Notes: generated by a model not told the origin, from the letters alone. A DNA stretch of 64,000 bases from Methanofastidiosum sp. (GCA_039679445.1 JBDKUY010000025.1:12362-76361), one strand, 5' to 3'; shown: positions 7,197 to 37,688, numbered from the stretch's first letter. Numbers and translations: made by a program.

Positions 7197-7272
7197 TTCA
7201 ACACCAATATCTTTTCTATACTAAGTATATAATAGATACCTATATAAACTAGTAAGTTTCTAGTTTGATACC

Positions 7273-7638: not shown

Positions 7639-7736
7639 ATAGGACTGCTCCTTGAGATTATTACCCTATAGTAATATATATTTTATGTTGAATAATCTTA
7701 TAATACATTAGTTAGATTAGTTATTGTTGGATTAAT

Positions 7737-8153
7737 ATGAAGAAAAAAGTTCTTTTTGTTTGCACACATAATTCAGCTAGATCACAAATGGCCGAAGGCC
7801 TATTGAATAATATTTGTGGAAACACCTTTGAGGCATATAGCGCAGGCTCGACACCCACCAGAATAAACCCGTTATCCATTGAAGCTTTGAAAGAAATAGG
7901 AATTGACATATCCTCTCATTATTCAAAAAGCACTGAAGATTTTATGAACATACAATTTGATTACGTGATTACAGTTTGTGATAATGCTAAAGAAACATGC
8001 CCATTTTTTCCTGGTGCGAAAAATTACATACACAAAAGATTTGAAGATCCTTCCGGCGTAGAAGGAACAGAGGAAGATAAATTAAATGCTTTTAGGAAAT
8101 CTAGAGACGAAATAAAGCGATGGATAATAGAATTCTTTTGTAATAATTCTTAG
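7737..8153 (+). CDS. arsC: Arsenate reductase, LMW-PTPase/thioredoxin-coupled type
   Basis: CTHNSARS P-loop plus VCDNAKETCPFFPG, which carries the second and third catalytic Cys. Confidence 0.85.
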   Translation: MKKKVLFVCTHNSARSQMAEGLLNNICGNTFEAYSAGSTPTRINPLSIEALKEIGIDISSHYSKSTEDFMNIQFDYVITVCDNAKETCPFFPGAKNYIHKRFEDPSGVEGTEEDKLNAFRKSRDEIKRWIIEFFCNNS

Positions 8154-8209
8154 ATTAGTTTAAGTTAAAAAGACTAAAATTTAAAGTCTCCACGCCTAGC
8201 ATGAAATCC

Positions 8210-16389: not shown

Positions 16390-16407
16390 TGTGTAGGATA
16401 AAAGAGG

Positions 16408-16459
16408 CGGGCCTGGTGGGATTTGAACCCACGATCTCAAGGTCCGAAGCCCTACGCCA
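16408..16459 (-). repeat. att direct repeat (left): 52-nt copy of the 3' portion of tRNA-Arg
   Basis: 49/52 identical to 37616-37667 in the same orientation. Covers the acceptor 3' strand, T-arm, variable loop and anticodon arm. The upstream 5' part is degenerate, so this is not a complete tRNA. Confidence 0.85.
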
Positions 16460-18015: not shown

Positions 18016-18052
18016 TGCTAAATGACATTTTTCATTTTTATATTTATCTAAT

Positions 18053-19548: not shown

Positions 19549-21033
19549 TTAAACCGCCACCATTGATAGTTTATATCCAAAGAACAGTAGGAACAAAAAT
19601 ATTAATCCGCAGAATATAACTAACTCCGGCCTTCTTTTCCATACTCCAATTAGCCCGCCTATTAGTATAAATACCCAAGTTGGTATCCCGTATTTATCAT
19701 TGAAGTTAAATAAATTTCTAAATAATACATTTTGCAGATCTCCGGTATATTGCCCATCCACGCTAATTATAGGAGTATCATCTGTTAAATCTGGATATAC
19801 GGGATTAGAGGGAGTTCCTGGATCTCCTGGATCTACGACAGGAGGAGTAACTACCGGAGGATCATAATAATAGACTTTTACTTGATAGTAATATCCATCA
19901 AAATAGCATTTATAGGTATATACAGATTTATAAATTAATGATACTTTTAATACTCCATCTTCATTAATATACGTCTCAAAATTATTACCAATCTCTAAAT
20001 TATGGGTTTTTGGCCCACCCCAATAAGTTCTTTCGTAATACTCTAAATAATTACCCCTGGTATCAACATTTTCATTAATATATCCTGGTGCATTATTATC
20101 ATATATATATGCCTTTAATTCTATATCTTGTGGAGTATATTGATTATAGTATGATAAATTTGCTTTAAACAATATTTCTATTTTCTGTATTTTGCTAACA
20201 TTTTCATCAATTTTAGTTTCAAATCTATACCCCATATATCTTTGAGTATTTGTTGCATCTTCTAATCGGTGATAATTCGCATCATCAGATCCAAAATAAG
20301 TATAAGTAGTATTTGATTCTGAACCATTAAATGTAGGTTGAAAAGATCCTATATCGCCATTATAAAATACATTATTATAAGTATCAACATCTGTTACATT
20401 GGCATAATCATAAATCGTATATTTAATATCAGGATTTCCTTCATTTAATTCATTGGCATATTCAATAATTAATTTTGGCCTAGCTTGGACATAGTAAGTA
20501 GTTTTTTCTTTAGTAGTCCAACGACAATCCCCTGCACTTTTTGAGGCAAAAGAAACATCAGTAATAGAATTATTTAATCTATCAGCTACCCAACTAGTTA
20601 CATCACAATCGGGATAAGTATATCTTATAGTTGTAGGTATTGTTACTATTTCATCCCCGTATAATGGCCTATTGTTATATGTTAAAGTTAATTCATCCCA
20701 ATTATTGGAATCTACCTCATATATTGTTGAGCTTGGATTAACAGGAGTATAATCTGGACTAATCCTTAAATATGCTTTTACTATTTTCGCACTTTCAGGA
20801 ACAGTTGCTAGACTAAATTGGAAATATGCCGTCCTAGTTCCATCGCTCATTATAGGATTAACAGATCCATAATTGGTATTAGGATTATTACTACAAACAT
20901 AGGCATCATCTGAAACATTGATATACAAAAAATTAGTTTTATAATCTGGATCTTCGCATAAAGCTAGAGTAGTATTCATTAATAGCATAGCTACCATTAT
21001 TATACCAAATATTGTTATGTATTTTCTTTTCAA
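19549..21033 (-). CDS. Secreted, C-terminally anchored surface protein with a DNRLRE/CBM96-like N-terminal module
   Basis: Signal peptide. DDAYVCSNNPNTNYG...AYFQFSL...AKIVKAYLRI...NWDELTLTYNNRP. Pro-rich linker PPVVTPPVVDPGDPGTP. C-terminal TM helices. Confidence 0.6.
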   Translation of the reverse strand: MKRKYITIFGIIMVAMLLMNTTLALCEDPDYKTNFLYINVSDDAYVCSNNPNTNYGSVNPIMSDGTRTAYFQFSLATVPESAKIVKAYLRISPDYTPVNPSSTIYEVDSNNWDELTLTYNNRPLYGDEIVTIPTTIRYTYPDCDVTSWVADRLNNSITDVSFASKSAGDCRWTTKEKTTYYVQARPKLIIEYANELNEGNPDIKYTIYDYANVTDVDTYNNVFYNGDIGSFQPTFNGSESNTTYTYFGSDDANYHRLEDATNTQRYMGYRFETKIDENVSKIQKIEILFKANLSYYNQYTPQDIELKAYIYDNNAPGYINENVDTRGNYLEYYERTYWGGPKTHNLEIGNNFETYINEDGVLKVSLIYKSVYTYKCYFDGYYYQVKVYYYDPPVVTPPVVDPGDPGTPSNPVYPDLTDDTPIISVDGQYTGDLQNVLFRNLFNFNDKYGIPTWVFILIGGLIGVWKRRPELVIFCGLIFLFLLFFGYKLSMVAV

Positions 21034-21044
21034 TTTATCACATC

Positions 21045-22193
21045 CTAAAATGGTTTTTTAAATCCCATAAATGCCCATATTACAAATAATGCGACTAGTC
21101 CTAGGACTATCATATTTGTGTAACTATTAGTTGCGCCAAAATAAAACGAAGGTAGATCAACTTCAGTTGTATCTATTACCGTATAGGCAGTTGCCACCGC
21201 TTTAGAGTTAGTTAACTCTATCATGAAAATAGTTGTTTTCCCACTTGGTATTATCTGGTTTCTAGTTCCAAACGACTTGCTACCCCTGTAAATTTCATCG
21301 CCGTCCTGGTATAAGATATACTGGTTGATAGTTCCGGTTGATTTGTCTATTATATCTACCTGATATTCACTATTTCCAAACGGTTTTAGATTTGCAGAGG
21401 TAATGGAGGCCACCATCCCGAAATCTTCTATTTCCGGGGGAACTGGTATAGTTCCAGTATCGGCAGTTGCATAGGCCGTTGAGTTTCTACCAGAGTTAGA
21501 AACTTCTATCATAAATACTGATATTTGCCCTGGATCAATATATGCCCTTATTGATCTAAATGAACTTGCGCCCTCATAGATTAATTTATCATCCTGGTAA
21601 AGTTTCCAGTATGTTATTTTTCCAGTTGAAAGATCATCTACCAAAACTTCATATACCCCACTTGAAAGAGGGGAGGGTTTAGTTACTACTATTGAGGCTT
21701 GAATAGTGTCGTCATAAACTGGATCCGGTATATCGACTTCATCGGCAATATCTACTGGTGAAGGCAAAAAAGGAGGCTCAATATAATAATCATTATCGTT
21801 TGGTCCAACTTCTATATTATACCTTACTGATCCAGATTCAGTTTTCGGAGTTCTGTAAGATTCATAACCAACATCTTCAGTAAATTGGTATCTTACATCA
21901 AAAACGCAATTTTTAATTATTGCATAATCATAAATCTGTATCTCTGTTTCGGACTGTGGAGGCATCCAATACCATTGGCCTTGTTGCCATATTCGGCCAT
22001 CCTTGTAAATATCTACTTTATAAGACACCGAATATTGGTAAGGATTTACTAATGTATTCCAGATCTCTACATTAGATCCATATTCTACATTTATGGTCCG
22101 GCCGGGTTGATTAAAATTAAATGGCAGATAAGAATTAAAGGCTATTACTCCAACTAATATAATTCCCAATAAAATAAGTATATTTTTATTCAT
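21045..22193 (-). CDS. Secreted, C-terminally anchored protein with an internally duplicated domain of about 90 aa
   Basis: Signal peptide and C-terminal TM. Residues 164-250 and 259-346 share Y-V..D.STG.I..Y.LYQD...IY.G..SF....I.PG....FMIE..NS....TAY. Confidence 0.6.
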   Translation of the reverse strand: MNKNILILLGIILVGVIAFNSYLPFNFNQPGRTINVEYGSNVEIWNTLVNPYQYSVSYKVDIYKDGRIWQQGQWYWMPPQSETEIQIYDYAIIKNCVFDVRYQFTEDVGYESYRTPKTESGSVRYNIEVGPNDNDYYIEPPFLPSPVDIADEVDIPDPVYDDTIQASIVVTKPSPLSSGVYEVLVDDLSTGKITYWKLYQDDKLIYEGASSFRSIRAYIDPGQISVFMIEVSNSGRNSTAYATADTGTIPVPPEIEDFGMVASITSANLKPFGNSEYQVDIIDKSTGTINQYILYQDGDEIYRGSKSFGTRNQIIPSGKTTIFMIELTNSKAVATAYTVIDTTEVDLPSFYFGATNSYTNMIVLGLVALFVIWAFMGFKKPF

Positions 22194-22236
22194 ACGGATA
22201 CACCTAGAAAAGAGGGCGATTGAAAGTTAATATAAG

Positions 22237-22260
22237 TTAGTCCAACTATTAGTAGGACTG
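22237..22260. promoter_or_regulatory. Operator-like 24-bp element, copy 1 (ttagtccaactattagtaggactg)
   Basis: Identical to 25992-26015. Contains the inverted repeat AGTCC-N11-GGACT. Lies between divergent genes starting at 22193 (-) and 22340 (+). Confidence 0.6.
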
Positions 22261-22339
22261 AAAGAGAATAATTCTAGGATAAAAAAAGAGCATAATTAAT
22301 GTAAAAGAATATAAATATTATCCAATATATCTAGTTGTT

Positions 22340-22789
22340 ATGAATGAATATATAAAACAATTATTAACAATTTTACTTTTGTCTTTGGTGTTATTTATCT
22401 TAATTTATTTATTCGGTATAAATTCTTTTTTAATTAACGATACTGTTAAATATTATTTTTTATCTGCTATAATCCAGAGTAATTGTGCCTTATTTGGTTT
22501 AATATTAGTAAGTCTTGGCCTTAGAAGAAATGAACAAGAATCGTTCTTTCATCAAAGAGTAACTTTTGTATCGTTTAGTGTAATGTGCTTCTTTATTTGT
22601 ATAATAATTCTATTATCTATATTCTTTATGTTGATAAAAATATCCCCTGCATTAATCATTTTAATAGCGTGTATGGAAAGCGTTACAATCTGGTTAATTT
22701 TTGTGAATATAATTAATCTCATTGACTCTTTTAGCAATAAATCTAAGAAAGAACCGCCTCAAATACACGCAAGTCCAATTAAATTATAA
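22340..22789 (+). CDS. Polytopic membrane protein (4 predicted TM helices)
   Basis: 149 aa, four long hydrophobic segments. Plus-strand gene just downstream of operator copy 1. Confidence 0.5.
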   Translation: MNEYIKQLLTILLLSLVLFILIYLFGINSFLINDTVKYYFLSAIIQSNCALFGLILVSLGLRRNEQESFFHQRVTFVSFSVMCFFICIIILLSIFFMLIKISPALIILIACMESVTIWLIFVNIINLIDSFSNKSKKEPPQIHASPIKL

Positions 22790-22836: not shown

Positions 22837-23304
22837 TTATTTCAAATATCCTTTATCGTATATGAAATACCCGTTATGTTTTCTCTCAAAGTTATAAAGA
22901 AACTCTTTAGTTGAAAAAGGCAGTTTAAATAAATTGTCAATCAATGGAAGTATAAAAATTGATTCCGGTGTTTCTGGTATCCCAGAGCCAACGACTACAA
23001 ATACATCAATATTGTTTTTATCCCTGTAATCCTTGAAGAAGTCCAGTTGGTCCTTCTTGATTAAAAAGTTTTTTTCTTTTATTTCAGATCTAAATTTGCA
23101 CTCTACCGCAAAATTAGTATTGTTGTAATTTGCCCTTATAATGAAGTCCGGCAGATTATCCATTAAAGTCTTGGAATCCTGAAAATGAGAGGTCCGATGG
23201 ACTATGCTATAAATTGGTTCTGGAAAAAGAGTTTGAACATAGGATTGGAATTTATAGCCCATTTCTAAATGAATGTTAAACATTTCTGATTCATTTATCA
23301 TCAA
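22837..23304 (-). CDS. Putative PD-(D/E)xK nuclease-fold protein
   Basis: GYKFQSYVQTLF...LPDFIIRANYNNTNFAVECKFRS gives D...E-x-K spacing like Mrr-cat/Hjc-type nucleases. Confidence 0.4.
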   Translation of the reverse strand: MMINESEMFNIHLEMGYKFQSYVQTLFPEPIYSIVHRTSHFQDSKTLMDNLPDFIIRANYNNTNFAVECKFRSEIKEKNFLIKKDQLDFFKDYRDKNNIDVFVVVGSGIPETPESIFILPLIDNLFKLPFSTKEFLYNFERKHNGYFIYDKGYLK

Positions 23305-23340: not shown

Positions 23341-24252
23341 TTATTTGTAGATTTTTGGATTAGCCCAATATATTTGGAAGTCCACAGTTTCATCCCAGTT
23401 AGATCTTCTTAGTTTTATTGTGCTAGTAAATTCGCTATTATCTGGGTTAATAGTTCCGCTCTGAAGGCCTAATAGGGAACTGTTCTTTAAGAGCATATTT
23501 AGTTGAATTTCATAAGTTTGTAGGGAATTATCGTCCGGGAGGCCTAATTGACACCCGTAAGACTGTTCGGCCATCCTGGTATCAATCCAGAATATTACAG
23601 GATAAGCAGTAACTCCATTATGAGTAATTGGATAAGGCCTTGTTGGAGTTAAAGGATCTCCTAATGCAACAGTAGTTGCACTATCGCTTGGATTTATCCT
23701 AAAGAAATAATAGCCGTCATTTACAACTACTTTTCCTACTCCAAGAGAAGTATCTATTGGTGAGCCACTAAATCCAGGATCCAATACAAACTGGTCACTA
23801 GTCATCCATGGCCTTTCATATACCCTCTTATTGTATGGGTATGTTATTTTAGTTGCATAGTAAGAAAAATCAATGTAGTCTATACTGTATTCTGAAATCG
23901 GTTTCTCAAAGTCAGCAAAAGCCAAAAAGCCGAATCCTATTAATTCGTTTCCATTTTCATCATAGATTTGAAAAGATTTGTTAAATATGCCGTCCTGGGA
24001 ACTACCAAGTAGTTCATGAGTTCCATCTGAATATATGCCGAATACAAATTGATTTACCGATCCCACCGTCATGGCATTTGAAACTATAAAGAGCATGAAT
24101 ATAGTTGCTATGGCTATTGCGCCAAGGCCGTATATACTGGCTAGTTTTACTCCGAATTTATATAGGATAAATGCAAATATGGCCACCGCTACTACCACTA
24201 TAAGTAAAGCAGTATTTCCCAATTGCCCCACTCCCGAAAGTATTGATAACAT
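23341..24252 (-). CDS. Membrane-anchored protein (two N-terminal TM helices, large ectodomain)
   Basis: 303 aa. N-terminal hydrophobic helices followed by a beta-rich, aromatic-rich domain. No motif recognised. Confidence 0.5.
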   Translation of the reverse strand: MLSILSGVGQLGNTALLIVVVAVAIFAFILYKFGVKLASIYGLGAIAIATIFMLFIVSNAMTVGSVNQFVFGIYSDGTHELLGSSQDGIFNKSFQIYDENGNELIGFGFLAFADFEKPISEYSIDYIDFSYYATKITYPYNKRVYERPWMTSDQFVLDPGFSGSPIDTSLGVGKVVVNDGYYFFRINPSDSATTVALGDPLTPTRPYPITHNGVTAYPVIFWIDTRMAEQSYGCQLGLPDDNSLQTYEIQLNMLLKNSSLLGLQSGTINPDNSEFTSTIKLRRSNWDETVDFQIYWANPKIYK

Positions 24253-24277: not shown

Positions 24278-24517
24278 TTATAATAATTTTACTCCACTTT
24301 TTGAAATAATGTAGAGGATCGTCATTGTTGGTATGAATCCATCAAGTTGGTCCGTAATGTCCAGTAATTCCCAGGCATAGAAAATTCCCATAGGTCCAAT
24401 AAGATAGTAGGCTACTGGTATTCCTACAAGGTCAAATAATGTTCCTAGCCCTGGAATCCTAACAAAGAAATCAATTATATCAAATATAATGCATAGGAAA
24501 AATCTAATATCCATCAA
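24278..24517 (-). CDS. Small hydrophobic membrane protein
   Basis: 79 aa, 2-3 hydrophobic segments. ATGA 4-nt overlap with the upstream CPBP gene. Confidence 0.45.
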   Translation of the reverse strand: MMDIRFFLCIIFDIIDFFVRIPGLGTLFDLVGIPVAYYLIGPMGIFYAWELLDITDQLDGFIPTMTILYIISKSGVKLL

Positions 24518-25035
24518 ATAATCACCCCGAATAATATTATTGGAAATATCATTAATGTCCTAGTTGAGATAAGATCCCACCCGGCATGAAATGCTATTGC
24601 AGATTCCAAGCCTACATATTCACTAAGCATATACATGAAGATACCGCCTAGAAAGGCTAGTATCAATCCGCTTAATAGGTATGAAAAGGTCAATGAATTT
24701 ACCGAATATGCGTAGGTGTGGGCAAGAGAGAACAGCATTTGCGATAGTATTGCAGGTCCCCAGATCTTCCCAAAGAAAGGAAGAGAGGGAAATATGTTTT
24801 TTGCTTTTGGCAATACTCCCTGGAAAAAATAAGTTTCCCCGAATCCCACAAACAAGGAGTAGAAAACTAGAGGCCAAATAAGGGAGGCTTCAGAGATTAC
24901 AAAATACCCCCTGAAAGGGATCAATAGGAATATAGTCGAAATAAATGTTACAGCAAATACTATCATGGAAGTATATAGATCATGCTTAAATTTCACATCC
25001 GGAACTAGGAATAATCCCAAAAGTTCAATGATCAT
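24514..25035 (-). CDS. CPBP (CAAX protease/Abi) family intramembrane protease-like protein
   Basis: Polytopic. GETYFFQGVLP (motif 1, normally EExxxR), FSLAH (motif 2) and HAGWD (motif 3) in the expected order. Confidence 0.55.
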   Translation of the reverse strand: MIIELLGLFLVPDVKFKHDLYTSMIVFAVTFISTIFLLIPFRGYFVISEASLIWPLVFYSLFVGFGETYFFQGVLPKAKNIFPSLPFFGKIWGPAILSQMLFSLAHTYAYSVNSLTFSYLLSGLILAFLGGIFMYMLSEYVGLESAIAFHAGWDLISTRTLMIFPIILFGVII

Positions 25036-25244: not shown

Positions 25245-25961
25245 TTAGCTTTTTGCGATTACTAAAAAGTTTACTGTATATGTATCCCCGGCAACATTGA
25301 ACTGGACCGGTGCGCTTTCATATGCGTCAAGATAGTCTAGTGAAGAAGCTAAAGGAGTAATAACTACATCAACTTCAACTGGTGTTGTGGTAACAACTAC
25401 CCTAGATTTATCATAAATTCCAGTATCATATTCAATGTCAAAAGAGGACCTTGTATATCCAGATCTCCAGGCAACAGGGTATATTGGTGAGGTCAATTCA
25501 GAAGTATCCTCGTTAGAAATTGCAGGAACATTATGAGTAACAGTTGTTACTCCCTGAAGGTTGGAATCTGTATTTAGATCTGTCCTATCTATCGTAAATG
25601 TTGCAGTTACCTCTGATACATCAGAAACAGGAGTTACCCCCGAACCTGTTATTGTTATTGGAACTGTTAATGTCCTAGTTGTTATATCATAACTTGAAAT
25701 TGAAGAATTGTAATCGGACAATTCGGTCTTAAAAGTTATGTTTGCATTTTGTTTGCCCTGGTCCGGATTAGATGAGCCTAGATTAAAGCCAATATCTACA
25801 TCAAGAACAGAAGGCAGTATTAGAAGGCCAATAATTACACCTACGACTAATCCAGGTATAACACCCTTCATTTTGGCCAATGTCCACCCGATATAGGCGC
25901 AAACTAGAGCTACTATACCAGTTGCCAATAATAGAGCTTGCATATCCATAAAATCACCCAA
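25245..25961 (-). CDS. Membrane-anchored T/S/V-rich protein (candidate envelope or structural protein)
   Basis: Two N-terminal TM helices, then a beta-rich T/S/V/D-rich domain. First gene of the minus-strand block downstream of operator copy 2. Confidence 0.5.
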   Translation of the reverse strand: MGDFMDMQALLLATGIVALVCAYIGWTLAKMKGVIPGLVVGVIIGLLILPSVLDVDIGFNLGSSNPDQGKQNANITFKTELSDYNSSISSYDITTRTLTVPITITGSGVTPVSDVSEVTATFTIDRTDLNTDSNLQGVTTVTHNVPAISNEDTSELTSPIYPVAWRSGYTRSSFDIEYDTGIYDKSRVVVTTTPVEVDVVITPLASSLDYLDAYESAPVQFNVAGDTYTVNFLVIAKS

Positions 25962-25991
25962 GCCTACTAATTGGCGTTTGATATAAATAAA

Positions 25992-26015
25992 TTAGTCCAA
26001 CTATTAGTAGGACTG
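25992..26015. promoter_or_regulatory. Operator-like 24-bp element, copy 2
   Basis: Identical to 22237-22260. Flanked by TATA-like boxes on both sides (atataaataa at 25981-25990, atatatataa at 26021-26030). A partial inverted copy cctactaat..tgg lies at 25963-25974. Confidence 0.6.
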
Positions 26016-26048
26016 GAAAGATATATATAAGAATTTAAAAAAAATATA

Positions 26049-26867
26049 TTGATGGATTATAATACTGCTCGTTCTATGAAATTATCGCTTTTTTCTACTA
26101 TTTTCGGTATTGTTATAAGTGCATTTTTTTCTTTAATTTTTTTAACTCTAAATCAGTTTTTTGATATTAAAGATTATCCTTTGTTATATTTTTTTTTCGG
26201 CTGGATTTTAGTTATGATTATTCTTTTACTAATCAGAGAAATTATATCTTTTTTAGAATATGATTTACCTGAAATTTCAAAAGGAGAATTACCTGAAAAC
26301 TCATTTGAGTATTTTTCTCAATTAAATATGGCCATAGAAAAAAAGTATTTTTGTAAATGCGAATGTGTCTCAAAGAATGAATCCACAATAGGTTTGATTT
26401 TACAAGTAATTTGTAAATTATCAAGTATCTTTTCCCCGTTTATTCCTATATTTATTGTTTTTTTTCTTTGTATTAGTCTCTGGGCTTCTTTAAAATTTTT
26501 TTACTGGGTATGGTCTATTATTCTATCTCCTCACATTTCGGCATTATTAGCTTTTTTATGTCTTTTTATAGCTATTATTGTTATTATACAATTTGATTTA
26601 CCATATAAAATAATCAATTATTTTAATCATGGTTGTAATCTTAAAATAAAAATTATTTCTAAAATAGCACTAAAATATCCTATATTGATACAATACAACA
26701 TCAAAAATGAAAGCATAACTAATGAGTTTCCCTTGAAACTTTTCATTGACCTTAAAGAAAAATCATTTTATTTTCACTCTATTGACCCGGATAATCCAAG
26801 AACTAAAAAGAAAATCTTGAAAATAATCAATGAAGTAATTGATAAATGTATTAAGAATCAATTGTAA
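26049..26867 (+). CDS. Polytopic membrane protein
   Basis: 272 aa, multiple hydrophobic helices. Plus-strand gene just downstream of operator copy 2. Confidence 0.5.
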   Translation: MMDYNTARSMKLSLFSTIFGIVISAFFSLIFLTLNQFFDIKDYPLLYFFFGWILVMIILLLIREIISFLEYDLPEISKGELPENSFEYFSQLNMAIEKKYFCKCECVSKNESTIGLILQVICKLSSIFSPFIPIFIVFFLCISLWASLKFFYWVWSIILSPHISALLAFLCLFIAIIVIIQFDLPYKIINYFNHGCNLKIKIISKIALKYPILIQYNIKNESITNEFPLKLFIDLKEKSFYFHSIDPDNPRTKKKILKIINEVIDKCIKNQL

Positions 26868-26895: not shown

Positions 26896-27840
26896 TTATT
26901 TATCCCTATTTTCCATTTCCTTGAATTTGGCTATTAGTTGCTTTTCGTCAAATTCATAGCTGCTTTTTGATAGGTAGTCAAGAATAAAAGAGATCCTTGC
27001 GCCGGACTTGTAATAATTGTATCCTATCGCCATGGCTTCATCCTCATTTTTGATTTTCCGGTAGAATCTTGAAATGTCATCACTCCAAAATGAGGGTAGT
27101 GGAACTTTTATGGTCATAAGCTCTGAATCAGAAACTATTAGGCAATCCTCTTTCTTTTGAGGCATCATAAATTCCACTACCGATTTAAAAATGCCCTCTC
27201 TTTCCGTTGTTGCCTGGAAAATGGCATTTTTCTTGATTAATGAAAAACTGGCCTGTCTTACGACTTCTATATCTACTGAAGCCGTATATTGGGTGATAAA
27301 AATTATATTCTTGTGTTGGTGCCTTGCGACCATGAGCAGTTGGCCTAAGTCCTTGTTGTCCTTGTTTGCAAAGTTCCTACTTGAATATTGCACCCCTGTT
27401 TCATCCTGTATTATTATGCTATCTTCCGGGCAATCTTCTATACTAGGAGAGTAAGTTATCCACTCCGGCAGTTTGTTGTTTGGAAGTCCGACCCAGAATA
27501 TCTGATTTTCATTGTAATATTTTTGCTCATAAAGTTGCTCTATAAAAAAAAGTATAGAGGCAGTTTTCCCGCTACCCCTACCGCCGAATACGAGCTCTAC
27601 CTGTCCATCCCCCATGTATAGTTCCATGGCTTTATTCAGTTTTGTTACCGGATCATCCATGTAATCATTTAAGGCATAGTAGACATCAAGAGGTTTGAAT
27701 CGTGCAAGGTAATAGCAGTATGATTTATCATATTGGCTAAATCTTTCCGATATGTAAGATTCAAATGTTGCGGTATTTCTGTCTATAAATTCCCATGCGT
27801 AGTCCAGGCCTTTGTAATACCCGTCATTATAGAATACCAT
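26896..27840 (-). CDS. P-loop NTPase, Zot/pI-like (assembly or extrusion type)
   Basis: Walker A GGRGSGKTAS, Walker B SIIIQDETG, then LLMVARHQHKNIIFITQ resembling the Zot-family hRHhGxDIxxxTQ motif. Confidence 0.6.
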   Translation of the reverse strand: MVFYNDGYYKGLDYAWEFIDRNTATFESYISERFSQYDKSYCYYLARFKPLDVYYALNDYMDDPVTKLNKAMELYMGDGQVELVFGGRGSGKTASILFFIEQLYEQKYYNENQIFWVGLPNNKLPEWITYSPSIEDCPEDSIIIQDETGVQYSSRNFANKDNKDLGQLLMVARHQHKNIIFITQYTASVDIEVVRQASFSLIKKNAIFQATTEREGIFKSVVEFMMPQKKEDCLIVSDSELMTIKVPLPSFWSDDISRFYRKIKNEDEAMAIGYNYYKSGARISFILDYLSKSSYEFDEKQLIAKFKEMENRDK

Positions 27841-27993
27841 TTATTCATCCTATAATTGGAGTTTGCCATCTTATTGTATATCCGACAAAAAATAAAAAAA
27901 TATTCAATACATGTAGATATGTTCTTTTGTTTAAAGGAGTTCTATAATACCTAAATCCTAGGGCAAAAGTAATATTACATAATTTTTGTATGT

Positions 27994-28821
27994 TCATCTT
28001 TCATCATCCCTGTCTATTTTTCTCCTATCTTTATCCCCGATAAACTTGCTTTTCCAGTCGGTTGGGTATAGTGATTTATTAATTCCGCCCAGGGTGTCAA
28101 TGAATCTGCTTACCGCCCTAAAGTTTCCCTCCGATAGATCCCTGTATGTATGGATTAGCATGTTGGTATCAGAATAATTTTTACTAAGAATCGCTATTGA
28201 TTCCAAGTATGTTTTCAAATCTTTTTCACCAAATAGATCAATCGCCTTGGATTCCTCTAGGGCATAGCCAAAGAAATAAGGGCCCTTGAATTTTCCTTTA
28301 TCGGATTCAAGAAAGTCAACTATTTGGGGTGCCAACCACTCCAATCTATACGGCATTAATGGGCAGAAGCAGAGGAAGTTAGAGGAGTTCACATACTTGT
28401 TGTTAGGTTCAATGCTATATTGATCATATCCAAATTCCATTATTTGGCCGATGGCAATATTTGCCACAAGATTTGGGTTTACTTTTTTTATTGCAGATTT
28501 AAAAGTGATTACCGTTCCTTCCCCGCCCTCTTTGCTCATGCCTACGGCCATGTATGAGCCAATCGGAACAGCAATACAGTCGGTGTTAGGTATATCATAA
28601 GGCTCAAAAAGGATACTAGCATGAAAGTTAGGTGCTATGATTTGCGGTGTTGCGTATCTCCAGGACCCGACAGAGGCAGAGTAAAGAAAGAATCCCATGA
28701 ATCCAAAGACAAGGACTATGTATGTTGTTGGGATTTCAACTACCCCTAAATAATCACGACCGTAGTATGCAAGAACAACGGCTACAAGCATTATGATGGC
28801 TATTTTAGCTTGTTTGTTCAT
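27994..28821 (-). CDS. Membrane protein (two N-terminal TM helices), unknown function
   Basis: 275 aa. Overlaps the upstream gene by 17 nt. Confidence 0.5.
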   Translation of the reverse strand: MNKQAKIAIIMLVAVVLAYYGRDYLGVVEIPTTYIVLVFGFMGFFLYSASVGSWRYATPQIIAPNFHASILFEPYDIPNTDCIAVPIGSYMAVGMSKEGGEGTVITFKSAIKKVNPNLVANIAIGQIMEFGYDQYSIEPNNKYVNSSNFLCFCPLMPYRLEWLAPQIVDFLESDKGKFKGPYFFGYALEESKAIDLFGEKDLKTYLESIAILSKNYSDTNMLIHTYRDLSEGNFRAVSRFIDTLGGINKSLYPTDWKSKFIGDKDRRKIDRDDER

Positions 28822-29302
28822 TGTTAGAACACTCCTCTAGTTCTGTTGCCTTCTTGTAAAGTCTCAAATCCTCAATGGCATAGTATAAAGACGGTTTTGA
28901 AGTGTATCGGTCAAAAAGATTACAAATTATGTAAGCCCTCATGTTCTGATTATTGTTATATGAAAAGTCCTTTATTTCATTTAAGAAAAGTGAAAATTCC
29001 TTGTATAGGTAAACTTTTTTTATAAACTTGTGCTGCTTCTCTGTTACCTTGATTTCCCAATTTTTTATGTTACTACTTGCTTTTACTGAAGCAGTATTTC
29101 CCATGGCTAGTTGGTCCTCTAGGTCTTTTACGCACTTGAATATTACCGCCATCTTTTTTTCAAAGTTTTGTGCATCTTCATAAAGATAGATATTGTCAAT
29201 AAATGCCTTCAATACGCCGGATATGTTGTTTTTTACCAGGAAGTTAATATCTGATTTGTTTATGCCTTTTAGGGTATATTTATAGTTCAGGTCGGAGGTC
29301 AT
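28805..29302 (-). CDS. Hypothetical soluble protein
   Basis: 165 aa. Directly abuts the upstream gene (29303). Confidence 0.5.
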   Translation of the reverse strand: MTSDLNYKYTLKGINKSDINFLVKNNISGVLKAFIDNIYLYEDAQNFEKKMAVIFKCVKDLEDQLAMGNTASVKASSNIKNWEIKVTEKQHKFIKKVYLYKEFSLFLNEIKDFSYNNNQNMRAYIICNLFDRYTSKPSLYYAIEDLRLYKKATELEECSNNEQTS

Positions 29303-29977
29303 TTAATATCTCCCCTGATTATAGTTCTGATAGTTTTTTTCCTCAATGGCCAGTTGTTTGTCCTTTTCAATTTGTTGTTTTTCCCTGGGTGTTGAGGGGA
29401 TTAGAGGTTTTGGCCTTGGAGTTTTATTGGAACTATTAGACATTGGCCTAAGTGATATTATTATTGCGAATATGCCGAGGCATAGAGAGATCACACCGAG
29501 ATAAAGGGAATACTTGTAATTTAGATCATCTATTCTAACGGTAGTATCGGCTAGATTCTTTATTCCGTTGGAAAGTGTGTTATAGTTCCTGGCAAGATTT
29601 TTTACAGAGGTATTTAGATCACTTATTGAGTTTGAGGTTATGTCCGGAGGACTTCCGCCCATCTCTTTTTTTAATCCTGTAATTGCATTGTTAAGTTCCG
29701 CTACTGTTACAAATCCGCTTAGGTCCGTTTCATCTGAATTGGAAGATTTTAATAGAGTTTCAAGATTATTTACTTTATTTTCAAGGACTTTTAATCTCTG
29801 GTCAAATGTATTGCTAAATGCTTCAGTTCCGCTTGATTTAATATCCGATAGATCATAGGAAACGGACATTATATTTCCGCCCATTGATAGTTCTATTGTA
29901 TAGACCTGTCCTATATATCCCTCTTTTTCAATTAGATCGGTTGGTATTTCATTAGAAGTCATTATTACTCTGGTCAT
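29303..29977 (-). CDS. Coiled-coil protein with C-terminal TM anchor
   Basis: Heptad-like N/L/S-rich central region, TM helix LYLGVISLCLGIFAIIISL, basic tail. 4-nt overlap with the upstream gene. Confidence 0.5.
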   Translation of the reverse strand: MTRVIMTSNEIPTDLIEKEGYIGQVYTIELSMGGNIMSVSYDLSDIKSSGTEAFSNTFDQRLKVLENKVNNLETLLKSSNSDETDLSGFVTVAELNNAITGLKKEMGGSPPDITSNSISDLNTSVKNLARNYNTLSNGIKNLADTTVRIDDLNYKYSLYLGVISLCLGIFAIIISLRPMSNSSNKTPRPKPLIPSTPREKQQIEKDKQLAIEEKNYQNYNQGRY

Positions 29978-30525
29978 CCCCCCGAATCGGTAGTATATTC
30001 TGATTTAATGCTTAATCGTTCTTTTACGAGGTTAGGCATAGCACCATATGTAATTTTTAAATCAGATCTAGGGCCGTAATGTATGAAACTAGCTTGCGAT
30101 TTATACCTTAATTCCCCAAAGCCAGTATCCCAGTAGGTATTAGGATTTACTGGTCCAGAAGCTGAAGAATTATTTACATCCATAAGTCTTGTATGGGTAT
30201 GTAAAATTGTATTATCAGTTGCAGTTACCTTTATCACATATTGACCGTTTTGCACATTGGAAGTTTGCCAGTAAATAGAGTATTCCGAATTTTTATCGGT
30301 TGATTCATTGATTAAACTAAAGTCCACACCGTTAGCCGAATATTCATATATGCATTTTACACTAGAATTACCCGTATAAGTTACCGTAGATTTCAGTTCC
30401 ACAAATCCAGTTGCAGTTGCCGGGGAAGTCAAGATTACATTAATAGTATTTGCGGATAATAAGGGAATCAATAAAAGCATTAAGCCGATAGCCAGGATTA
30501 TAGATTTTTTCATAATAATATCCAC
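29974..30525 (-). CDS. Secreted protein with Ig-like beta-sandwich character
   Basis: Signal peptide (KKSIILAIGLMLLLIPLLSA), then alternating beta-pattern VELKSTVTYTGNSSVKCIYEYS...GQYVIKVTATD. Confidence 0.5.
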   Translation of the reverse strand: MDIIMKKSIILAIGLMLLLIPLLSANTINVILTSPATATGFVELKSTVTYTGNSSVKCIYEYSANGVDFSLINESTDKNSEYSIYWQTSNVQNGQYVIKVTATDNTILHTHTRLMDVNNSSASGPVNPNTYWDTGFGELRYKSQASFIHYGPRSDLKITYGAMPNLVKERLSIKSEYTTDSGG

Positions 30526-30843
30526 TTCCCTAATTCCCTTGCGACTGGTCGGCCGTCATTTAAAATTCCTTTGTCCTCTACCCCTTTTCTGTAAGTTATT
30601 GTAAATTGGCCATAAATTGGAATCAGTTCATTATTTTCAGGAATTTGTTGGAAAATTCTATCGGTTCCCGTTTTTGCATATTTTTTTCTCATTTCTAGCA
30701 CCTGGGAATTTAATATCTCTCTCTTTCAAGAATTGCAATCTACTCTGTAAGGACATGTTGCAGAATCTAGCAAAATCATCTTCATTTTCAAAGATGGATT
30801 CTTTCACGATAAGCTTCTTTCTGGATTTTTTCATAATGATCAA
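30510..30843 (-). pseudogene. Small protein ORF split at a T7/A7 homopolymer (30681-30687)
   Basis: ORFs 30658-30843 and 30510-30701 fuse into about 112 aa (...FPGARNEKKYAKTGTDRIFQQ...) if the A7 run on the coding strand is read as A6. Confidence 0.45.
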
Positions 30844-30960
30844 GAGCAGATTTCACTAAAAATAAAAAACACTCTCTAGGCCTATACTTGTTAAATAATG
30901 TCTCGAATAGAATATCTACTTTAGAGGTATCTTCAGGCAAGAGAGAGGTATCCATTTAAA

Positions 30961-31215
30961 TCAGTTCCAGCCACCGTGGGATAGTCCATTTAGCAAGCCA
31001 CCGGAAATGAGAAGTCCGATAGCAATAATGCAAACACCAGTAATGTTAATGTAGGTCATAGGTAGATAAGATACATTGGCAATTGCCATGAATAGCATAA
31101 GTGTAAAGCAACCGCCACCCCCGACCATAAAAAACGCACCGAGTATGGCTAGGGCAAATCTTATACCTTTTAGTTCCAATAGACTATTTATTTTAAATAG
31201 AGTATTTTTGGACAT
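30961..31215 (-). CDS. 84-aa protein with two hydrophobic helices (candidate spindle-virus-type major capsid protein)
   Basis: Short polar N-terminus, then ALAILGAFFMVGGGGCFTLMLFMAIANV, a short loop, and GVCIIAIGLLISGGLLNGL. This architecture resembles SSV1 VP1-like capsid proteins. Architecture only, no sequence match was tested. Confidence 0.4.
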   Translation of the reverse strand: MSKNTLFKINSLLELKGIRFALAILGAFFMVGGGGCFTLMLFMAIANVSYLPMTYINITGVCIIAIGLLISGGLLNGLSHGGWN

Positions 31216-31219
31216 CTAA

Positions 31220-31927
31220 TCAGTTCTCTTTTTTGTTAAACTCTGTTTTGTCCTTGAATCCCTGTCTTGGTGCGTATTCGGGTTTATCGGCAAGTATCTT
31301 TTTAGCTTCATCTGGATTTGCTTTTATCCAATCTTCTCTTAGAGTTAGTTTCCTTGTTTTTACAGTTCCTATAATTTTCATGTCCACTATGTCTTTGCTA
31401 CTAGCTTTCCACTCCGGATACTCCGGGTTAAAGTTTTCCTCTTTCTTGTATGCGGATAGTTCAATTTCTACTGATTCGCCGTTTTTCCTTGCCATGACTA
31501 TTTGAGTTTCCAGTTTGTCAATTAATTTCTGGTAAGTTTCCCCATTGGGATCAAACACAGAGAAATAGATAGGTTCTTTTGTCTTATCGTTTAAGACATC
31601 AATAATATTGCCGTCCTTGTCAAACTGTTTCTTTTTTAGCCTAATCTCTGAATCGCCGTAAACTTGAATTTCGGCTTTTACCGGCGCGTCATTAAACATG
31701 TTACTTGGCTTTTTGTCAGGATCTTCAACTGAAATTCTAAGCATTGAGTAAAGCCTTTCGTCAGGTGAGCTATTCATCATTTTCTTTAATTCAGGGTAGA
31801 AGTCCAGGACTTCTTGTTTTGTTACAAAATCTTTATTGTATTGGTCATTTTTATAGCCAATACTTTTTACTATTGTTTTAAAAACATTTCTTGCTTTTTT
31901 CCTTTTCATTGAATAATTCAATGGCAT
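31220..31927 (-). CDS. Charged K/E-rich 235-aa protein, unknown function
   Basis: First gene of the minus-strand operon that ends with the NTPase. No motif recognised. Confidence 0.5.
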   Translation of the reverse strand: MPLNYSMKRKKARNVFKTIVKSIGYKNDQYNKDFVTKQEVLDFYPELKKMMNSSPDERLYSMLRISVEDPDKKPSNMFNDAPVKAEIQVYGDSEIRLKKKQFDKDGNIIDVLNDKTKEPIYFSVFDPNGETYQKLIDKLETQIVMARKNGESVEIELSAYKKEENFNPEYPEWKASSKDIVDMKIIGTVKTRKLTLREDWIKANPDEAKKILADKPEYAPRQGFKDKTEFNKKEN

Positions 31928-32999: not shown

Positions 33000-33788
33000 A
33001 TGCAAGATCTAAGAAATGATAAGATTAAAGAAAGTTTAAGAAATGTAGTAGAGGCCTTTAAAACTGGTGAAGTTCCGGAGGCCATTAGAATAGTTATGTT
33101 TCCTAGATCTGAAATGCCATCAAATAAATGGAGTTTATGCAATCGGTTAATAATGTTTTTCAATGGAACAGAGGACGCCAGGGGATTTAAACAATGGAAC
33201 AGCCAAGAAAGATGGGTAAAGAAAGGAAGCAGAGCATTTTATATTCTAGGTCCAAAGATGGCCAAGATCCATGAAGAAGATGGAACAGAAAATATAATAT
33301 TGAAAGGTTTTATTTCAATTCCAGTTTTTAGAGCAGAAGATACAGAGGGTAAGCCATTAGAAAAGCCAGATCTAAAACTACCAGAATTAAGATTATTAAA
33401 TGTTGCAGAAAAATGGGGAATTGATGTTAAACCAATAGAAGGTAACGACATATGTAATGGCTATTTTATGCCAAATCAGAATAAGATCCGATTAGCTACC
33501 CCCGAAGAAAAAGTATTTTTCCATGAATTAGCCCACGCAGGCCATAATTTAATACTAAATTCCCATGGCAAAAAATTAAAGGGTGGCCAAGATCCAAGAC
33601 AAGAGATAACAGCAGAGTTAACAGCTTCGGTTTTATCTGAATATTTCGGTATAAGATCCACTCTGGGGAACAGCTACGATTATATCAAATCGTATGCAGA
33701 TGAACAAAGTAAATCTGTAGAACTAGCAGTTTTAGAAGTATTAACGGACGTAGAGAAGATATTAAATTTAATAATGGAAGAAAATTAA
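33000..33788 (+). CDS. ArdC-like protein (N-terminal ssDNA-binding-like domain plus HExxH metalloprotease domain)
   Basis: N-terminus NKWSLCNRLIMFFNGTEDARGFKQWNSQERWVKKGSRAFYILGP resembles the ArdC-N/DUF1738 pattern. C-terminal FFHELAHAGH zinc-protease motif. Confidence 0.6.
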   Translation: MQDLRNDKIKESLRNVVEAFKTGEVPEAIRIVMFPRSEMPSNKWSLCNRLIMFFNGTEDARGFKQWNSQERWVKKGSRAFYILGPKMAKIHEEDGTENIILKGFISIPVFRAEDTEGKPLEKPDLKLPELRLLNVAEKWGIDVKPIEGNDICNGYFMPNQNKIRLATPEEKVFFHELAHAGHNLILNSHGKKLKGGQDPRQEITAELTASVLSEYFGIRSTLGNSYDYIKSYADEQSKSVELAVLEVLTDVEKILNLIMEEN

Positions 33789-33824: not shown

Positions 33825-34622
33825 ATGGAATTTATTAATCATCTGATCATAAAGAAAGGGATAAGTCCATATCAGGCCAAAGATTACAATTATAAAATTT
33901 TGCAGTTTTTAAGAAAATATCAAGACACTAAAGAAAATATGGAAGAATTTTATATTGATTATCTCAAAGGTGATTATTCAAAGTCCACAATAAGAAATGT
34001 TGCTTTTGCCCTAAATCATTATGCAGAGTATAAAGGCTATGATCTAAAGATTAAGCCACCTAAAAAAAATATGACCGAAGTTAAATATCTCAATAAGGAA
34101 GATATTATTAATGTTTTAGATCACATGCCAAATTACAGGGAAACAGCGATTTTTTTATTAATGGTCCAGGCAGGTTTAAGGATCAATGAAGTATGCAAGT
34201 TGAATATAGAAGATCTTTATCTGAAAGATGATTATATTTTATTGAAGGATACCAAGAATCGTAAGGACTGGAAGGTTTATATTTCTGAAGAAATCAAGAC
34301 GGCAATTTTAGTTTATATTGGCCATGAAAGGCCATCAAGTAATAATAAGGCAGTTTTTATTAATTCTAATAATAGTAGGTTGTCAAATAGATTTATAGAA
34401 AAAAGATTTGAGATTATAAGAGAAAAATCAAATATTTATTTTTATCCACACATGCTAAGGCATACATGCGCTACCCAAATGCGACTGAACGGTGCGGACA
34501 TAGATACAATAAAAAATCAATTAAGACACCTTGATTATAAGTCCACTCAAAGATATATTCATGCTATAAATGAGATCCAGAAGGTCAATTATTTGAAGTA
34601 TTGCCCTAAAATTTTAAAATAG
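33825..34622 (+). CDS. int: Tyrosine recombinase/integrase (XerC/D-like, intact)
   Basis: Catalytic pattern AGLRINE (R), HMLRHT (HxxR), LRH (H), STQRYIH (Y). N-terminal SAM-like core-binding domain. Confidence 0.9.
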   Translation: MEFINHLIIKKGISPYQAKDYNYKILQFLRKYQDTKENMEEFYIDYLKGDYSKSTIRNVAFALNHYAEYKGYDLKIKPPKKNMTEVKYLNKEDIINVLDHMPNYRETAIFLLMVQAGLRINEVCKLNIEDLYLKDDYILLKDTKNRKDWKVYISEEIKTAILVYIGHERPSSNNKAVFINSNNSRLSNRFIEKRFEIIREKSNIYFYPHMLRHTCATQMRLNGADIDTIKNQLRHLDYKSTQRYIHAINEIQKVNYLKYCPKILK

Positions 34623-37568: not shown

Positions 37569-37615
37569 TTTATTACCTGATTTTTTACTCCACTAGATAG
37601 AGAATAGGGAAATAG

Positions 37616-37667
37616 CGGGCCTGATGGGATTTGAACCCACGATCTCAGGGTCCGAAGCCCTGCGCCA
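37616..37667 (-). repeat. att direct repeat (right), inside the intact tRNA-Arg
   Basis: 49/52 identity with 16408-16459. Confidence 0.85.
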
Positions 37668-37688
37668 TATCCACTAGACTACAGGCCC
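37616..37688 (-). tRNA. tRNA-Arg (anticodon UCG)
   Basis: Hand-folded cloverleaf: acceptor GGGCCTG/CAGGCCC, anticodon stem CAGGG/CCCTG with loop CTTCGGA, T-arm GTGGG-TTCAAAT-CCCAT, discriminator G, no encoded CCA. Confidence 0.85.

Follow-up and report, generated by a model that had tools for sequence, protein, structure and literature searches.

A VP4-type spike or fusion protein with a V-shaped fold is the hallmark of the pleolipovirus family, and pleolipovirus-like proviruses are known in Methanonatronarchaeales, Methanomassiliicoccales and Archaeoglobi (PMC10919331). Inovirus-like proviruses have been proposed for Methanosarcinaceae and Aenigmarchaeota, and genuine pI proteins, for which Zot is the nearest Pfam domain, must carry a transmembrane (TM) domain, one or two of them (Roux et al. 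2019, PMC6813254). The spindle viruses of Thermococcales have TM-anchored lectin proteins among their core genes, and in PAV1 a gene for a DUF7845 protein with a winged helix-turn-helix (wHTH) domain sits at the replication locus (PMC12934983, a 2026 preprint). The pT26-2 family comprises elements of 17-38 kb that integrate at the 3' end of tRNA genes, some members having an internal integrase; its conserved block of about 12 ORFans, mostly transmembrane, includes one ATPase (t26-14p, described as VirB4/HerA-like AAA+) and a protein with a carbohydrate-binding domain, beside a variable region of singletons (PMC6972569). For the archaeal class Methanofastidiosia, no report of a virus or provirus was found in the literature searched. 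Here, we analysed a stretch of 64,000 nucleotides from Methanofastidiosum sp. (GCA_039679445.1 JBDKUY010000025.1:12362-76361), hereafter referred to as the window, in which an earlier note, made from the sequence alone, had described an operon of nine minus-strand open reading frames (ORFs) at 26896-31927 as a possible virion assembly module. This gene array is part of a 21.2-kb mobile element that is integrated at the 3' end of the gene for tRNA-Arg(TCG). We give an even chance to the reading that the minus-strand array, which runs from 31927 down to 19549, serves virion building and host entry in a temperate archaeal virus that is enveloped by a membrane and does not lyse its host. This virus would be a distant relative of the pleolipoviruses and a new family-level lineage, the first of the Methanofastidiosia.

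The element is delimited by two 53-nt direct repeats (repeat D1), 94% identical, at 16407-16459 and 37615-37667, with a spacing of 21,208 nt. The second copy (attR) is the 3' part of the tRNA-Arg(TCG) gene (37615-37688, minus strand), which was found with ARAGORN and Rfam, and the first (attL) repeats this part of the tRNA at the other extremity of the element. The same attachment (att) sequence comes after the CBM96 gene in a relative (L001) from another Methanofastidiosum metagenome-assembled genome (MAG). An intact tyrosine integrase gene is located inside the element (33825-34622, plus strand; Pfam Phage_integrase, E 3e-33). It is preceded by the gene of an ArdC-like anti-restriction protein (33000-33788, plus strand), composed of a single-stranded DNA-binding N domain and a metallopeptidase; this protein matches a PHROG anti-restriction family with an E of 5e-14, while its scores for Pfam ArdcN and MPTase-PolyVal are both slightly under the cut-offs. 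On the minus strand, segment 35349-37196 encodes a 615-aa (amino acid) DUF7845-like protein with a C-terminal wHTH, probably a replication or control protein, which matches DUF7845 with an E of 4e-5 and 23.5 bits, under the Pfam cut-off of 27, and also matches HTH_5. A small HTH protein is also encoded inside the element. The att repeats, the integrase and the ArdC-like and DUF7845-like genes bracket or accompany the array, which thus lies within an integrated mobile element. The host is Candidatus Methanofastidiosum (WSA2), as the threonyl-tRNA synthetase (ThrRS) of the window is 98-99% identical to that of MAGs of the genus, and archaeal housekeeping genes are found on the flanks. The fraction of guanine and cytosine (GC) of the element is 0.322. 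Several metagenomes, from cultures that degrade hydrocarbons and from tailings cultures, contain identical copies of it. None of the ORFs scanned has a PHROG or Pfam match to capsid, portal, terminase, tail, icosahedral-virus or lysis genes.

Eight diverged relatives of the element were compared with it (L131, L142, L143, L139, L140, L146, L001 and L002). L131 has about 90% nucleotide identity to the window element, and L142, L143, L139, L140 and L146 have 70-97% amino acid identity to it from the spike-like gene onward; in L139 and L140, the 235-aa protein and the small upstream ORFs drop to 44-75%. The identity of L002 is 29-59%, and the colinear core is shared across the relatives at 29-97%. 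Where a relative reaches a flank, it has the host genes or the att site of the window element as neighbours, in other strains or species: PhoU in L131, CGI-121 and FtsZ in L139 and L142, and the tRNA-derived att in L001. The comparison shows a core of about 16 genes, common to these eight elements and under purifying selection, with members that include the 235-aa protein, three small ORFs, the 407-aa spike-like protein, the 165- and 275-aa proteins, a nucleoside triphosphatase (NTPase), the 238-aa protein, an Rce1-like protease, the 79-, 303-, 155- and 382-aa proteins and the CBM96 protein. The conserved ORFs of the array have ratios of nonsynonymous to synonymous substitution (Ka/Ks) of 0.03-0.25 against two diverged relatives, and they are therefore real genes rather than chance ORFs. 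TM segments or a signal peptide are found in 8 of the roughly 16 core proteins. The nine ORFs listed by the earlier note are all present, but they are not the whole array: a 61-aa ORF (30658-30843) and a 50-aa ORF (27845-27997) bring the total between 26896 and 31927 to 11. Moreover, the NTPase gene, which had been taken for the last gene of the operon, is followed by seven more conserved, colinear genes, so that the module extends 7 kb further down to 19549, ending with the CBM96 gene near attL.

The strongest tie to known viruses is the NTPase, a protein of 314 amino acids encoded by segment 26896-27840 (minus strand). Searches of Pfam, PHROG and the PDB and hhalign comparisons assign it to the P-loop NTPases of the Zot or pleolipovirus VP8 kind. 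Its motifs are present as had been noted: GGRGSGKTAS (Walker A) at residue 86, IIIQDETG (Walker B) at residue 142 and the third motif, ARHQHKNIIFITQ, at residue 172. Zot (PF05707) is the sole Pfam family over threshold, with 26 bits against a cut-off of 20.3, and the family members L033 and L022 match it too; Bac_DnaA is not among the Pfam matches. The PHROG matches are Zot-like, pI and DnaA-like replication initiation proteins, the last with an E of 1e-5. With tblastn, the protein matches only inovirus pI/Zot genes, weakly, in phage and plasmid collections; in this search it did not group with conjugative or partition ATPases. The best PDB match of a 24-sequence profile of the NTPase family is 2r2a, a solved Zot N-terminal domain. 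A profile of the element-type NTPases was aligned by hhalign in local mode to a profile of five pleolipovirus NTPases (those of HRPV-1, VP8, and of HHPV-1, HRPV-10, HRPV-9 and His2) with a probability of 96.4% and an E of 1.2e-9; the alignment spans 132 columns, starting ahead of Walker A and reaching a conserved R-x-x-S motif past Walker B. The probability is 91.6% over 110 columns for His1 ORF16 and BLv25 ORF1, which the hidden Markov model (HMM) also matches with an E of 1e-7 to 9e-6, and 84.3% over 145 columns for M13 pI. PAV1 ORF375 reaches 81.9% over only 50 columns, in the Walker A region, and SSV1 B251 reaches 41.9%. As a control, two unrelated P-loop proteins reach 31-42% over just 27-28 columns. 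Among the reference groups themselves, the pleolipovirus NTPases align to the His1-type ATPases with 14-59% and to pI with 58-72%, and the His1-type ATPases align to pI with less than 1%. These values come from shallow profiles (effective number of sequences, Neff, 2-3) with secondary structure unused, and the E-values are for single comparisons. The window sequence alone reaches 78.9% against the pleolipovirus profile, and the HMMER profile of the NTPase is not significant against HRPV-1 VP8 alone. Taken by these profile comparisons, the NTPase is homologous to the pleolipovirus VP8-type NTPases, the His1-type ATPases and inovirus pI/Zot. The name Zot-like in the earlier note agrees with Pfam, while by profile the nearest group is the VP8 type, followed by the His1 type and then by pI.

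A hydropathy scan found no TM segment in the window NTPase, in its element-borne relatives or in the pleolipovirus and His1-type ATPases; the scan found none in M13 pI either, and it cannot by itself separate these groups. An AlphaFold2 (AF2) model of the NTPase from a five-sequence alignment has a predicted local distance difference test score (pLDDT) of 42 and is unusable. Searched against GTDB genomes, the NTPase profile gave nothing among the matches listed, although a related element is present in an NCBI MAG. About 25 more distant homologs from metagenomes have 27-36% identity, a length of about 270 amino acids and an N-terminal hydrophobic segment. They include a Zot-like subfamily (L014-L037, for example L018 6011-6835 and L028 9821-10642) with a conserved C-terminal LPSFW..ISK motif, found on low-GC, DPANN-like contigs, in which the neighbours encode an AsnRS/AspRS-type aminoacyl-tRNA synthetase, a ThrRS with an archaeal editing domain and adenylosuccinate lyase; this subfamily possibly has a chromosomal, cellular role. 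L032 and L033 share the N-terminal NTPase domain of the window type. L033 (SDBT01017881.1, 279-10796) is an unrelated low-GC element with a tyrosine integrase, a serine resolvase, a 318-aa NTPase of the window type and several small TM proteins. In IMG/VR, four contigs (L004-L007, for example L006 9980-10615) encode NTPase homologs of 207-231 amino acids, with an hhalign probability of 98%, between a sigma-factor-like gene and thymidylate synthase.

The order of the genes upstream of the NTPase can be compared with that of the pleolipovirus morphogenetic block. In the relatives, the gene of the 407-aa spike-like protein, of type-I topology, is followed by those of the 165-aa protein and of the 275-aa protein with its N-terminal TM helices, a small ORF and the NTPase gene. 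The order is VP4 (518 aa), ORF5 (57), ORF6 (181), ORF7 (270) and VP8 (343) in HRPV-1; VP14, ORF15, ORF16 (189), ORF17 (255), ORF18 (48) and ORF19 in HRPV-9; and ORF29, ORF30 (185), ORF31 (294), ORF32 (62) and ORF33 in His2. The topology agrees for the spike-like protein, for the pair of the 275-aa protein and ORF7, and for the NTPase, in which no TM segment was found on either side. The 275-aa protein (27994-28821, minus strand) has two N-terminal TM helices, in keeping with the two-TM protein of the earlier note, and is 29-86% identical in seven relatives. Between this gene and that of the NTPase lies the 50-aa ORF (27845-27997, minus strand), which has a near-identical 49-aa counterpart in L146; HRPV-9 (ORF18) and His2 (ORF32) have small ORFs at the matching position. 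The 165-aa protein (28805-29302, minus strand) is soluble and 72-88% identical in five relatives, with a Ka/Ks of 0.13-0.14. The array starts with a soluble, basic 235-aa protein (31220-31927, minus strand; isoelectric point 9.0), in which K and E make up 25% of the residues, in accordance with its description as K/E-rich; it is 54-90% identical across five relatives, with a Ka/Ks of 0.06-0.17. Three small overlapping ORFs for soluble proteins (30510-30955, minus strand) of 55 (30788-30955), 61 (30658-30843) and 63 (30510-30701) amino acids have 44-97% identity in relatives and a Ka/Ks of 0.05-0.25.

The spike-like gene (29303-30525, minus strand) is split in the window. The earlier note described a secreted Ig-like protein and an anchored coiled-coil protein, and these features are indeed found: the signal peptide lies in the N half of 183 amino acids (29974-30525), together with a weak Ig-like match (Big_7, E 0.0017), and the coiled coil lies in the C half of 224 amino acids (29303-29977), which also contains the TM anchor and the tail. 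However, they are parts of one gene. In L139, L140, L142 and L143, the two ORFs are replaced by a single uninterrupted 407-aa ORF; its product has a type-I topology and combines a signal peptide with an Ig-like region, a coiled coil, a C-terminal TM anchor and about 45 amino acids of tail. At the split, the window reads TCGGGGGGATGACC where the relatives read TCCGGTGGCATGACC, a deletion of 1 nt that results in a run of six G (G6) and in a stop/start overlap, ATGA (29974-29977). The same lesion, with G6, is present in five of five independent assemblies. The sizes of the gene junctions given earlier are thus correct (a 4-nt overlap at 29977/29974, an abutment with 0 nt at 29303/29302, and overlaps of 17 nt at 28821/28805 and 16 nt at 30525/30510), but the first of them is a frameshift within the 407-aa gene and not a translational coupling of two genes. 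The ATGA overlap falls on a methionine that is conserved in the intact 407-aa proteins, and because of this exact stop/start overlap both halves might still be made. The split might reflect a pseudogene, phase variation or a tolerated split.

Past the NTPase, the module continues on the minus strand with membrane and secreted proteins. An acidic 238-aa protein (25245-25961; isoelectric point 4.1) with an N-terminal TM segment is part of the conserved core, with 42-77% identity in seven relatives. It is followed by a 173-aa Rce1-like (CAAX/CPBP) intramembrane protease (24514-25035; PF02517, E 4e-9), conserved in the relatives, and by a 79-aa small membrane protein (24278-24517), the gene of which has a 4-nt overlap with that of the protease and which is 59-92% identical in relatives. 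The 79-aa product has eight invariant acidic residues, and its pairing with the protease is kept in all relatives. The family of this protein has 59 members; two distant ones that were looked up are chromosomal, one on a 354-kb contig beside lipid- and sugar-metabolism genes and one on a Woesearchaeota contig, from which we conclude that the family is cellular and was captured by the element. These two homologs stand alone in the chromosomes, with no adjacent protease. Two further core proteins are a 303-aa protein (23341-24252) with N-terminal TM segments, 37-81% identical in seven relatives, and a 155-aa protein (22837-23304), 43-97% identical in seven relatives, with a Ka/Ks of 0.03-0.16. 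A 382-aa protein (21045-22193) has a signal peptide and a C-terminal TM anchor (TM 1-27 and 357-381), and it is 58-90% identical in six relatives with a Ka/Ks of 0.10-0.17. The last, a 494-aa CBM96 protein (19549-21033; Pfam CBM96, E 1e-19), also has a signal peptide and a C-terminal TM anchor (TM 5-27 and 467-494). The stalk and anchor at its C-terminus are 69-87% conserved, while the N-terminal glycan-binding head is just 36-39% identical among relatives, and for this reason the protein is a candidate receptor-binding adhesin.

We infer the roles of the single membrane proteins, the coating of DNA, budding and the action of the NTPase as an assembly motor from these features. In a viral cycle, the excised circular DNA would replicate with the help of the DUF7845/wHTH protein, and the basic 235-aa protein may coat or condense it. 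The 407-aa protein, of type-I topology, and the 382-aa and CBM96 proteins, by their TM anchors, would be inserted into the membrane of the cell, where they would form the envelope spikes and the adhesins that bind glycans, and the 275-, 238-, 303- and 79-aa membrane proteins would arrange the budding patch. There, the cytoplasmic NTPase would drive DNA loading or assembly at the membrane. The particles would exit without lysis, by budding or extrusion, and the ArdC-like protein would shield the DNA upon its entry into a new cell.

Several observations weigh against this reading. The NTPase apart, no protein of the element is similar to pleolipovirus, His1 or PAV1 proteins (hhalign at most 1.3%; nothing by BLASTP or phmmer), and the element families have no detectable similarity to VP3, VP4, ORF6 or ORF7, with hhalign values of at most 0.1% for VP3 and of 0.1% for the 407-aa protein against VP4. 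A VP4-type fusogen is not demonstrated in the element. No VP3-type internal membrane protein is found beside the spike-like gene, as the upstream genes encode soluble proteins, except for a non-conserved 84-aa ORF. Furthermore, the 165-aa protein has no TM segment, in contrast to pleolipovirus ORF6 with its signal peptide and anchor. With the spike-like gene broken in the window copy, this provirus may be impaired. Neither an excised form nor an empty attachment site was seen in a look-up of the flanking genes, in which all contigs examined were occupied or ended at the att repeat; the latter (L133 and L134) end there because assembly breaks at repeats. A scan of IMG/VR viral contigs found neither the element nor its relatives, but only four tailed-phage contigs with distant ATPases. 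These carry the NTPase relatives in DNA-metabolism regions, so the family is not exclusive to morphogenesis, and the homologs of about 270 amino acids are mostly located in DPANN-like archaeal chromosomes beside housekeeping genes.

The comparison with pleolipoviruses also shows differences in size and content. The genome of the element measures 21 kb, and about 18 kb when the 3.1 kb of cargo missing from L001 are left out, while pleolipovirus genomes are 7-17 kb. Unlike pleolipoviruses, the element has a seven-gene membrane and adhesin block after the NTPase, which includes the CPBP protease and the CBM96 adhesin. Its host is a mesophilic methanogen of the class Methanofastidiosia; the AvPV1-like viruses, which are related to the pleolipoviruses, are hyperthermophilic. 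Like AvPV1 and many pleolipoviruses, the element has the marks of a temperate virus, a tyrosine integrase and a tRNA att site (PMC10919331), and no capsid-type protein is found in the element or in pleolipoviruses. The element is related to the pleolipoviruses through the NTPase and perhaps through the local gene order, and is otherwise new.

The 84-aa protein (30961-31215, minus strand), for which a role as the capsid protein of a spindle-shaped virus had been proposed, consists mostly of hydrophobic helices, as described before. Its helices are rich in glycine, unlike those of five reference capsid proteins, and its short loop has two N-x-S/T sequons, which hint but faintly at a capsid protein. 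However, the ORF is missing in all five relatives that cover the position (L131, L139, L140, L142 and L143), and all of them keep the other genes of the operon; in L131, the 55-aa homolog comes directly after the 235-aa homolog, with no 84-aa ORF between. The expectation that related elements would keep the operon is therefore borne out with the exception of this gene. The gene is bordered by the near-identical junctions GAACTGATTAGATG and GAACTGATTTAAATG, and its GC fraction is 0.40, compared with 0.34-0.36 in its neighbours. No homolog was found in an indexed search of 5.8 billion proteins or in an exhaustive phmmer search of 1.84 billion cluster representatives. There is no Pfam or PHROG match and no tblastn match in a phage collection that contains SSV1, His1, PAV1 and BLv25. 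No BLASTP alignment with His1 VP21 or SSV1 VP3 was obtained, at a sensitivity below the level of HHpred, since an ORFan gives no profile; with His1 VP21 and His1 ORF16 as queries, tblastn found two or three relatives only, too few for profiles of the capsid proteins. The AF2 model from the single sequence has a pLDDT of 65 and three helices. In Foldseek searches of BFVD and the PDB with this model, none of the matches had E<3 and the lists contained no capsid protein; a hairpin is a shape that carries little fold information. The five reference capsid proteins have a basic C-terminal tail, which is not found in the 84-aa protein, and the core of the family has no conserved two-helix hairpin protein. 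Absence from the relatives, lack of homologs, lack of a capsid match and the deviating GC fraction are best read as those of an accessory gene of the window variant, perhaps for superinfection exclusion, and not of an SSV1 VP1-type capsid gene. As an alternative capsid candidate, the 79-aa protein was rejected, its family being cellular. L143 has its own insertion after the NTPase gene (6707-8392), with ORFs of 362, 90 and 76 amino acids, of which the last is a two-helix hairpin; small hairpin ORFs thus recur as variable accessory genes in the family. A recurrent pairing of NTPases with small two-TM ORFs was considered for the distant homologs in L018, L028, L033, L035 and L024, and rejected, as these ORFs resemble neither each other nor the 84-aa protein in sequence and the loci are mostly chromosomal. 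A 75-aa two-helix protein of L033, with a basic C-terminus, is more VP1-like in appearance than the 84-aa ORF of the window.

Among the other explanations, the main one is a non-viral integrative plasmid, whose module and ATPase would be a DNA or protein transfer device or would serve to load the plasmid into vesicles; we consider it unlikely, although it is the most serious rival. The pT26-2 family of Thermococcales and Methanococcales, for which an apparatus of this sort has been proposed, and the vesicle-borne plasmid pR1SE of Halorubrum are precedents, and ArdC-like proteins, of which the element has one, are typical of conjugative plasmids. The lack of a recognisable capsid protein, the absence from the IMG/VR contigs scanned and the position of the host class as sister group of Thermococcales are in line with a plasmid. 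The overall design fits that of the pT26-2 elements (PMC6972569), to which the element was likened by published description only, in its size, its integration site, its TM-rich ORFan block, its single ATPase and its carbohydrate-binding protein. However, the ATPase is Zot/VP8-like and not VirB4/HerA-like (sub-threshold matches to HerA_C and FtsK occur in distant NTPase relatives only), it matches only filamentous-phage Zot/pI in the plasmid and phage collections, and its best profile match is the virion-module NTPase of pleolipoviruses. Moreover, the host order differs, and the pT26-2 core proteins, encoded by seven genes (t26-5p, 6p, 7p, 11p, 13p, 14p and 15p), were reported without homologs beyond Thermococcales and Methanococcales (PMC6972569). 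A different function of the ATPase, in replication initiation or helicase loading, with the membrane proteins as cargo or for surface remodelling of a possibly decaying element, would agree with the match to the PHROG DnaA-like family (E 1e-5), with the DnaA-like label of His1 ORF16 and SSV1 B251 in their records, with the position of the tailed-phage homologs between the sigma-factor-like gene and thymidylate synthase, and with the frameshift in the spike-like gene of the window. It is improbable in view of the location of the NTPase gene, which in all eight relatives lies amid the colinear block of membrane and secreted proteins under purifying selection, far from the integrase/DUF7845 side, and has the same position as in the pleolipovirus morphogenetic block; in addition, Zot is over threshold and Bac_DnaA is not among the matches.

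The two remaining rivals are viruses of other kinds. A spindle-shaped virus, with the 84-aa or another small hairpin protein as its VP1-type major capsid protein, is very improbable. The hydrophobic helices and the loop sequons of the 84-aa protein, the His1-type ATPase match of 91.6%, the TM-anchored glycan-binding proteins and the long one-directional arrays of membrane proteins are reminiscent of spindle viruses such as His1 and PAV1/TPV1. The DUF7845-like/wHTH protein has the same architecture as PAV1 ORF528, which scores 188 bits compared with 23.5 in the element, and the two have no pairwise similarity; all element proteins were compared with those of PAV1 by pairwise BLASTP and phmmer, and nothing was found. 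What counts against such a virus is the 84-aa protein itself, missing from five relatives that keep the remaining operon, without a homolog, without a basic C-terminal tail and, in Pfam, PHROG, BLAST and Foldseek searches, without any similarity to capsid proteins such as VP1, VP3 and VP21. The sole conserved small hydrophobic protein, of 79 amino acids, is cellular, and unlike spindle viruses the core has no conserved VP1-type hairpin capsid protein. The lowest probability, that of a very remote prospect, goes to an archaeal inovirus-like filamentous virus, in which a pI/Zot ATPase would extrude a filament with small membrane-inserted coat proteins. Zot as the only Pfam family over threshold, 2r2a as the top PDB match and, in the phage and plasmid collections, the inovirus pI/Zot genes as best matches all favour it, and in principle the 84-aa protein could be read as a procoat with a leader and one TM segment. 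However, the 84-aa protein is not conserved and its C-terminus is not basic. The NTPase has no TM anchor, and its match to M13 pI (84.3%) is below that to pleolipoviruses (96.4%); only the distant DPANN-type homologs of about 270 amino acids have the N-terminal hydrophobic segment. Unlike typical inoviruses, which are several times smaller, the 21-kb element has many large membrane proteins, and no secretin, rolling-circle replication protein (Rep), single-stranded DNA-binding protein or conserved small coat proteins were found; a check of the inovirus context, which by the criteria of Roux et al. includes a replication initiator, short genes and 30-90-aa coat proteins with one TM domain each, gave no Rep family, many genes for 150-500 amino acids and, as small hydrophobic ORFs, only the non-conserved 84-aa and the cellular-type 79-aa ones. 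The temperate, membrane-enveloped virus distantly related to pleolipoviruses remains our preferred explanation. The integration of the element and the ties of its NTPase to non-lytic membrane viruses agree with the earlier proposal of a virion assembly module of a membrane-associated virus, while its spindle-type version is not supported.

A few genes of the window element are specific to its variant. The 272-aa multi-TM ORF (26049-26867, plus strand; GC 0.239) is an insertion found in window-type contigs only and absent from L001, L002 and L139-L146, and the 149-aa multi-TM ORF (22340-22789, plus strand) is an insertion found only in window-type elements. Both are antisense to the array, which they interrupt and which is continuous and one-directional in the relatives. 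Next to attL, there is a cargo region (16579-19384) with a GC fraction of 0.277, compared with 0.322 for the element, that consists of a 478-aa ORFan (16579-18015, minus strand) and a TPR/TPR-S 'sensor' protein with TPR domains (18053-19384, plus strand), the gene of which is transcribed divergently from the 478-aa ORF. This pair is absent from L001, where att comes directly after the CBM96 gene, and it appears to be acquired cargo, perhaps a defence or sensing pair; a PADLOC scan of the cargo genes gave a generic TPR match only. A 32-nt repeat, 94% identical, is located at 22232-22263 and 25987-26018, just upstream of the 382-aa and 238-aa genes, and holds the palindrome AGTCC...TGGACT (coding strand). 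It may be a shared operator, a promoter element or an RNA processing site that marks internal transcription units.

A two-helix hydrophobic ORF beside an ATPase is insufficient for calling a spindle-virus capsid gene, and in this case the comparison of close relatives settled the capsid question where homology searches could not. The element fits best as a new family-level variant among the temperate, non-lytic membrane viruses or virus-like elements of archaea. Its NTPase connects three groups of viruses, usually handled apart, that leave the cell through the membrane without lysis. pI/Zot acts in non-lytic, membrane-coupled virion export, and the element NTPase is closer to VP8, to the His1-type ATPases and to pI/Zot than these are to one another, from which follows a bolder reading that we find possible but rather doubtful: the element would be the first virus lineage of Methanofastidiosia, a new temperate, non-lytic, enveloped family, and its ATPase would belong to a single ancient module that serves membrane-coupled virion export without lysis in archaeal pleomorphic viruses, in archaeal spindle viruses and in bacterial filamentous phages alike, here combined with otherwise entirely new envelope proteins. 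The Methanofastidiosia are methyl-reducing methanogens that are often met in digesters and in consortia that degrade hydrocarbons. If a virus family, possibly a chronic one, resides at one chromosomal site in several strains (the tRNA-Arg gene in both the window and L001), it would offer a way into the ecology of these hosts, and with its integrase and att site it would be a possible genetic tool for Methanofastidiosia.

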